A stretch of 6,700 nucleotides of DNA, from positions 1 through 6,700 of the IMG/VR virus record IMGVR_UViG_3300039918_000037; one strand, written 5' to 3'. Source of the stretch: a virus. Each line of letters starts with the position of its first letter. Positions within the stretch are counted from its first letter, which is position 1. Of this stretch, positions 6,133-6,700 are shown one piece after another. A model generated the notes under the pieces. That model was given only the letters and a program-made list of their open reading frames with translations. It ran no database searches and had not been told where the DNA came from. A program made the position numbers and the translations under genes.

Positions 6133-6639
6133 TTAGGGCGCAGCCGGAGCAGGCACATTTGCAGTTCTAACGTTAGGCCGATTCGGCGGTCCGTTGTTAG
6201 GGTTGGTGGATGGCCGAACAGGCGAAAGAGTCTCCGGCAGCTCATTGAAAGCGATCACCTGAGGAGCACCGTAGTTCTCCCGAAGCGGCACGTCGGGTAT
6301 TGGAGAAATGACGTCACGTGAGCGCTCGACGCGCTGCTCTTGACGCTGCGGCTCTGCATCGAAGTCCTGGAAGTGACCGTTACGCGCAAACTCAAGACAC
6401 ATATTGAATTCCATGTCCGGTATCCGTGTTGCCTGCTGGGTGTAACAACGACAGTCGACCTGGCCGGACGTGGCCGAGCCGATCTGCACACACATGGCCG
6501 GAACCGGCGCACGAGTAGGGATCGTTATCTGATCGTACTTCGGGGCCGTGTAGGGCAATCCAGTCACACGGGGTGTCTGTTTGAACACGTAGTCCTGAGC
6601 GTCTGCGACTGGATCAGGTGGAGGCGGCTTACTGGCCAT
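6133..6639 (-). CDS. Cys/Pro-rich 168-aa ORF, in frame with and 3 nt downstream of the Zot/pI stop; likely the detached C-terminal (periplasmic) domain of pI
   Basis: ATG 6639 follows TAA-GCG in the same frame as the Zot ORF. Fused, the length would be about 405 aa, typical of long pI/Zot proteins. It has a Pro-rich N-terminus (MASKPPPPDP), four Cys (CVQ...CRCYTQQATR...C) and no signal peptide or TM segment. There is no SD at a usable distance: the nearest is GGGGGA, 15 nt upstream. Confidence 0.7.
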   Translation of the reverse strand: MASKPPPPDPVADAQDYVFKQTPRVTGLPYTAPKYDQITIPTRAPVPAMCVQIGSATSGQVDCRCYTQQATRIPDMEFNMCLEFARNGHFQDFDAEPQRQEQRVERSRDVISPIPDVPLRENYGAPQVIAFNELPETLSPVRPSTNPNNGPPNRPNVRTANVPAPAAP

Positions 6640-6642
6640 CGC

Positions 6643-6700
6643 TTAACTGTGAAATCCCCCGGCCGGCGCCGAACCGTTATAGCCAGGTGCCGCCGGCGCC
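6643..6700 (-). CDS. 3' end of the same Zot/pI ORF (duplicate of 1-55) plus its TAA stop at 6643-6645
   Basis: The minus strand reads ...GGA TTT CAC AGT TAA GCG ATG GCC.... The TAA is in the frame carried over from ATG 705. Confidence 0.9.
   Translation of the reverse strand, partial: APAAPGYNGSAPAGGFHS
6646..6700. repeat. Direct terminal repeat, right copy (identical to 1-55)
   Basis: Same 55-mer as 1-55. The offset is 6,645 bp, which is divisible by 3. Confidence 0.95.

Follow-up and report, generated by a model that had tools for sequence, protein, structure and literature searches.

An ochre codon interrupts the zot assembly gene in one assembly of an uncultured inovirus lineage

The interrupted zot gene and its genome

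The zot/pI frame of the inovirus described here opens at ATG 705 on the minus strand, runs for 235 codons to base 1, crosses the junction of the circular genome and ends in a TAA at 6645-6643. One codon (GCG) further on and in the same frame, ATG 6639 opens an ORF of 168 codons (6133-6639), referred to below as ORF168. The window, by which we mean the whole stretch of 6,700 nucleotides that was analysed (IMG/VR virus record IMGVR_UViG_3300039918_000037), represents a circle with a unit of 6645 bp, its bases 1-55 being repeated exactly at 6646-6700. A separate Logan assembly of run ERR6683664 (contig L001, 6675 bp) is 100% identical to the window, gives the same 235-aa and 168-aa gene calls and has the junction in its interior, so that neither the circular closure nor the stop codon is an artefact of the way in which the window was cut. 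A first-pass annotation, made from the letters alone, had read the frame across the junction into the TAA and on into the ORF at ATG 6639, and both the translation and L001 bear this out. The first 55-mer of the contig starts exactly one base after 6645, a placement expected by chance about once in 1000 cases.

The genome carries a complete inovirus gene set, including a Rep_1-type initiator, a putative ssDNA-binding protein, the major coat protein, pIII-like and pVI-like (DUF2523) proteins and zot, and its predicted genes are on the minus strand with a single exception. As judged from gene order and PHROG matches, zot occupies the position of an inovirus assembly gene in the morphogenesis module, which also holds the major coat gene: it directly follows the genes for the pIII-like (463 aa) and pVI-like proteins, and the stop codon of the latter overlaps its start as TAATG. 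The gene set contains no secretin gene and egress must therefore use a secretin of the host, to which, by inference, the C-terminal domain of Zot would dock. Whole-genome megablast against GenBank phages returned no match. A near-perfect hairpin (window 6072-6116; 21-nt arms, 95% complementary, 3-nt loop) lies between genes, just downstream of zot and upstream of an 87-aa gene; no T-run follows it, and it is a candidate packaging signal, origin element or terminator. The features to which the text refers are as follows.

1..705, minus strand: zot/pI codons 1-235, coding for the cytoplasmic P-loop ATPase domain, the transmembrane (TM) helix and the first 27 residues of the linker (translation; PF05707, E 8e-18; phrog_197, E 1e-65, profile positions 26-277)
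661..684, minus strand: Walker A motif GLPGNGKT, residues 8-15 (translation; G8, P10, G11, K14 and T15 invariant in 87 homologues)
82..165, minus strand: single TM helix, residues ~181-208 (KD19 maximum of 2.06 at residues 186-204; AF2 helix 181-208 with high pLDDT)
6643..6645, minus strand: premature TAA at codon 236, with the variant base 6645 being T on the coding strand and A on the plus strand (sole difference between the window and contig L158 over 6645 bp)
6133..6639, minus strand: ORF168, corresponding to zot codons 238-405 and the stop codon, and coding for the remainder of the Pro-rich linker and the four-Cys C-terminal (periplasmic) domain (phrog_197 positions 275-377, E 5e-11; identical to residues 238-405 of the intact protein P0006)
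6397..6492, minus strand: invariant Cys core of ORF168 (C50, C63, C65 and C81), including the CRCYTQQAT motif (columns invariant in alignments of 8, 87 and 91 sequences)
3439..3786, plus strand: lone plus-strand HTH regulator
6646..6700, no strand: 55-bp assembly overlap duplicating bases 1-55, non-biological and arising from circle closure (exact terminal repeat; junction interior in L001 and L158)

The part of the gene upstream of the stop has the features of a Zot/pI ATPase. Its match to the Zot family lies above the gathering score of PF05707, a conserved Walker B motif of the VVLDEAQ type accompanies Walker A, and one TM helix follows the ATPase domain, all in agreement with what the first-pass annotation had seen in this part. 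In an AF2 model of the intact protein, the ATPase domain is predicted with confidence and is followed by TM helix 181-208, a disordered linker (residues 209-246) and a small alpha/beta C-domain (residues 247-348). Codon 236 thus falls within the predicted disordered linker, between the TM helix and the four-Cys domain. The region coding for the linker also contains a 12-nt direct repeat, TTCGGCGCCGGC (coding strand), at window positions 17-28 and 47-58; the copies are 30 nt apart and in frame (SAPA...SAPA), and slippage or changes in linker length may occur at this repeat.

The four-Cys domain downstream of the stop

Sequence comparison identifies ORF168 as the C-terminal domain of a long Zot protein. 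Its match to PHROG 197 ('Zot-like toxin') covers the stretch of the profile that directly follows the one matched by the N-terminal part, and tblastn finds it in the C-terminal halves of Zot or assembly genes, both in Ralstonia phages PE226 and p12J and in many uncultured inoviruses, as would be expected of the detached C-domain of pI considered in the first-pass annotation. Alignments of eight relatives and of 87 and 91 sequences show no variation in the four cysteines or the CxCYTQQxT core. The first-pass annotation had named a CxCY(T/S)QQ(G/A)T motif of other Zot-like proteins, and this motif is real, its Cys, Gln and Thr residues being invariant. It had also noted four cysteines and the lack of a signal peptide or TM segment: no hydrophobic segment is present in ORF168 (maximum KD19 of 0.86), nor was a TM or signal-like segment found.

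A Pfam search with ORF168 returned no family. The AF2 model of the domain is of moderate confidence (pLDDT 73) and a Foldseek search of the PDB with it found no significant match (best E 0.32); a GspC/PilP-like secretin-binding fold, which we considered, is therefore unsupported. Codon differences in this part of the gene are almost exclusively synonymous (5 synonymous versus 0 non-synonymous between the window and contig L159, and 18 versus 3 between the window and contig L160), which indicates that the domain is under purifying selection in the intact relatives and is presumably needed. Domains of this kind (TPRVxGLPxTAPKYD...PVPAxC...CxCYTQQxT...C...G.F.DF) occur at about 150 loci (L004-L153) in prophages of Burkholderiales and other Proteobacteria. 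A by-product of the analysis is thus a clearly delimited and widely conserved four-Cys Zot C-domain that has neither a Pfam model nor a solved structural relative.

Intact forms of the gene

A protein search with the N-terminal part retrieved a protein of 405 aa (P0006) that equals exactly the 235 residues of the window's first piece, Glu, Ala and the 168 residues of ORF168; the fused length of about 405 aa proposed in the first-pass annotation is therefore the exact length of an existing protein. The 90%-identity cluster of P0006 contains the two pieces from the window together with three 405-aa forms. P0006 itself is encoded on L158, a circular contig of 6675 bp from the neighbouring run ERR6683665, and on L159 (SRR34986739), and the other 405-aa forms are encoded on L160 and L161 (SRR32051695 and SRR32051696) and on L162 (SRR5469039). 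L158 and the circle of the window share 6644 of 6645 bases and differ only at base 6645, which is G on the coding strand of L158 and T in the window, and codon 236 reads accordingly as GAA (Glu236) in the former and TAA in the latter. As a consequence, the C-domain is part of the same polypeptide as the TM helix in L158 but is cut off from it in the window. The contigs from the four further runs, L159-L162, are 97.7-99.4% identical to the window and likewise have GAA and encode 405-aa proteins, so that all five near-identical contigs carry a Glu codon at this position.

The same holds further afield. In the more distant L157, L154 and L004 the homologous codon is GAG and lies within a locally conserved G-F-x-S-E-A-(M/F)-A stretch. 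In L157, P0013 and P0007 a Met follows two codons after the Glu (E-A/S-M-A) in an uninterrupted ORF, which makes ATG 6639 an ancestral internal Met codon rather than a start that evolved together with the split. These alignments show that the ancestral codon 236 specified Glu and that the nonsense change is private to the assembly of a single run, ERR6683664.

We then surveyed 150 C-domain loci from species-representative bacterial genomes and IMG/VR by walking upstream in frame from each match. The frame is open for at least 230 codons upstream at 147 of the 150 loci, which leaves room, as judged by length, for an ATPase domain and a TM helix; at one locus (L040) it runs off the contig end. 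An in-frame stop in the linker was found at none of the roughly 150 related loci. The IMG/VR relatives L004, L005 and L006 each have one ORF of 404-414 aa, with C-domain identities of ~86-89%, 62% and 49%, respectively. The best 120 homologues of the 235-aa N-terminal part are all 330-411 aa long, and the split of the window is absent from them. Two loci were considered as other split zot genes, in Rugamonas (L008) and Uliginosibacterium (L068), and were rejected because an upstream ATPase domain is lacking in any frame within ~1.1 kb. The C-domain-only remnants at these loci (Rugamonas fusca L008 ~6840-7430 and Uliginosibacterium gangwonense L068 ~6860-7370) look like decayed filamentous prophages. 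Likewise, P0001, P0002 and P0004, which appeared to be short proteins consisting of the C-domain only, are in fact cut by contig ends.

Among cultured phages, Ralstonia phage PE226 has the closest assembly protein, with ~41% identity over 84% of the intact 405-aa form. In phage p12J (NC_005131.2 / AY374414.2, ~3717-4688), the tblastn match of the intact Zot falls into two pieces that cover 67% of the query, which may reflect a gap at the variable linker or a frame change. The gene also has a mosaic appearance: relative to L004, the C-domain is ~86-89% identical but the ATPase domain only 56%, L154 has a near-identical zot, and the ATPase domain of the window is 72-83% identical to those of the P0003 and P0008 lineages, whose C-domains or tails differ. 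This mosaicism suggests recombination around the disordered linker. The 6.6-kb lineage is present in at least six sequencing runs. A host range is suggested by its relatives, which are prophages in Duganella, Rugamonas, Massilia, Undibacterium and other Burkholderiales; the hosts of the lineage are probably Oxalobacteraceae or other Burkholderiales.

Origin and expected effect of the stop codon

The first-pass annotation had offered three options for the split, namely a nonsense-interrupted pI in a defective or helper-dependent phage, a full-length protein made by readthrough or suppression of the stop, and a novel two-piece pI, and had proposed to look in related inovirus genomes for conservation of the TAA. 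The relatives have a sense codon there, which leaves no true split gene and favours the first option, supported most directly by the GAA of the sister genome. We consider it likely that a G-to-T change at base 6645 turned Glu236 of a one-piece, 405-aa Zot/pI protein into an ochre stop, and that the window represents a recent nonsense mutant that is defective or helper-dependent. As far as the comparison of genomes can tell, the split is not an evolved architecture but an ordinary one-piece gene cut by one base change.

Such a TAA mutant would produce a 235-aa stump consisting of the ATPase domain and the TM helix but lacking the periplasmic domain. Some ORF168 product could arise from reinitiation at the pre-existing Met codon, 3 nt past the stop, and, having no export signal, would stay in the cytoplasm. 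In Ff phages the periplasmic domain of pI contacts the outer-membrane secretin. More specifically, the periplasmic domains of pI and pXI contact the N0 domain of pIV, and this contact is required for assembly (PMC8563730). By analogy with the Ff system, and given the conservation of the C-domain, the TAA allele would have lost its function: a TAA genome on its own would be expected to replicate, whereas its export as virions would depend on suppression or on complementation by an intact genome. Such a genome could be maintained as an episome or prophage, or would spread only when an intact helper genome is present in the same cell. A point against this reading is that the element was assembled as a complete circle in which all other genes are intact, an observation that fits a very recent mutation equally well.

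The rival that survives best takes the phage in ERR6683664 to be wild type (GAA) and the T to be a base-call or consensus artefact, caused by low coverage or by oxidative damage that converted G to T as the library was prepared. We regard this as unlikely, and the evidence bearing on it points in both directions. Damage by 8-oxoG in libraries typically produces changes of this class, G>T (C>A) transversions, and this single one is all that distinguishes the genome from that of the sister run. In addition, the contig of the window starts at the base beside the variant site, as would be expected if an assembly-graph bubble with both alleles in the reads was present there; we infer that a k=55 de Bruijn assembler popped a one-base bubble on an otherwise unbranched circle. 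However, the T is found in two assemblies, the contig with the k=55 overlap and the Logan k=31 contig of ERR6683664, a consensus error requires most of the reads to be wrong, and the bubble is explained equally well by a real polymorphism. The pattern suggests that both the G and the T allele were in the data behind the window, either in a polymorphic population or through co-assembly of two runs.

A bolder version of the nonsense-mutant reading holds that the TAA allele is a real variant that became the majority in one sample because losing a costly or toxic assembly ATPase pays in chronically infected cells; intact genomes in the same cells would then supply the pI with which this point-mutant cheater, or attenuated episome, is packaged. 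The start of the contig beside the variant base, with its hint of both alleles in the reads, would fit this scenario, which we consider improbable.

It is very unlikely that the gene is functional as it stands, with full-length 405-aa protein made by UAA readthrough or by a host ochre suppressor and with little pI being enough. The stop and the downstream ORF share a frame, and any inserted residue should be tolerated in the linker, which is disordered and variable, but the stop is conserved in no relative: instead of the conserved stop of a programmed readthrough site, the five near-identical genomes have GAA, three more distant ones have GAG and the 150 loci have no linker stop. Its absence from all five near-identical genomes and about 150 relatives argues against programmed readthrough as well as against a genuine two-piece pI. 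Nor does the site have a leaky context, a stimulating RNA structure or a suppressor tRNA to go with it. Its context is UAA-G, which terminates translation efficiently in well-studied bacteria. The genome mostly uses TAA as its stop: seven of the nine other predicted genes end in it, the pVI-like gene just upstream of zot among them, which rules out an alternative genetic code or a reassignment of TAA. A phage suppressor tRNA is ruled out by the lack of a tRNA gene in the window, and no readthrough-stimulating RNA structure was found, the 111 nt around and after the stop folding less stably than shuffled sequences (z +1.57). We also considered a short ribosome hop, which is possible in principle between the AGT just before the stop and the one four codons later; with a chance expectation of ~8% for such a pair, this is a weak point in favour, and the hop is unsupported.

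Barely credible, finally, is a genuine two-piece pI in which translational coupling (TAA-GCG-ATG) yields the ATPase-TM piece and the C-domain as separate, functional products: ORF168 is intact and the junction resembles coupled junctions in the same genome (e.g. the TAATG between the pVI-like gene and zot), but the split is unique to this assembly instead of being common to near-identical or distant relatives, the ATG is older than the stop rather than having evolved with it, ORF168 has no signal peptide or TM segment with which to reach the periplasm, and the otherwise identical sister genome leaves no time for adaptation to a split. The case carries a caution, in that an in-frame stop on a single contig does not amount to recoding or a new gene architecture; here, a look-up of near-identical genomes resolved the matter.

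With the nonsense-mutant reading preferred, the gene can be placed among known systems. It shares with the Zot/pI family (PF05707, PHROG 197) the N-terminal P-loop ATPase, the single TM helix, the linker and the Cys-containing C-domain, and differs in having a TAA that ends its ORF prematurely at codon 236; other runs contain the same phage with the gene intact. The split behaves like a classical gene I nonsense mutant. The amber mutants in gene I of f1/M13 (Ff) likewise have a nonsense codon in the assembly ATPase gene, and f1/M13 gene I nonsense mutants are expected to replicate without exporting virions unless they are suppressed or complemented. In contrast to these, the present case is a natural ochre variant in an uncultured Burkholderiales-type phage without a secretin gene of its own, for which such a phenotype would be expected by analogy. 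The Ff pair pI/pXI consists of two products of one gene, made through an internal in-frame start, and a C-terminal product could also start at an internal Met in the same frame here. However, pXI comes from an uninterrupted ORF and keeps the TM helix, whereas ORF168 starts 29 residues past the end of the helix, lacks one of its own and is a separate ORF only through the new stop. The two alleles form a natural wild-type/nonsense pair that could be used to study the role of the periplasmic domain in secretin-less inoviruses. Pf provides well-documented cases of defective filamentous phages that are complemented in trans, and, like the Pf miniphages, which act as cheaters, a genome without its morphogenesis function could spread on the proteins of intact co-resident genomes (PMC11996451). 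The miniphages differ in having large deletions that arise under hyper-replication, whereas the present change is a point mutation and its helper is hypothetical.
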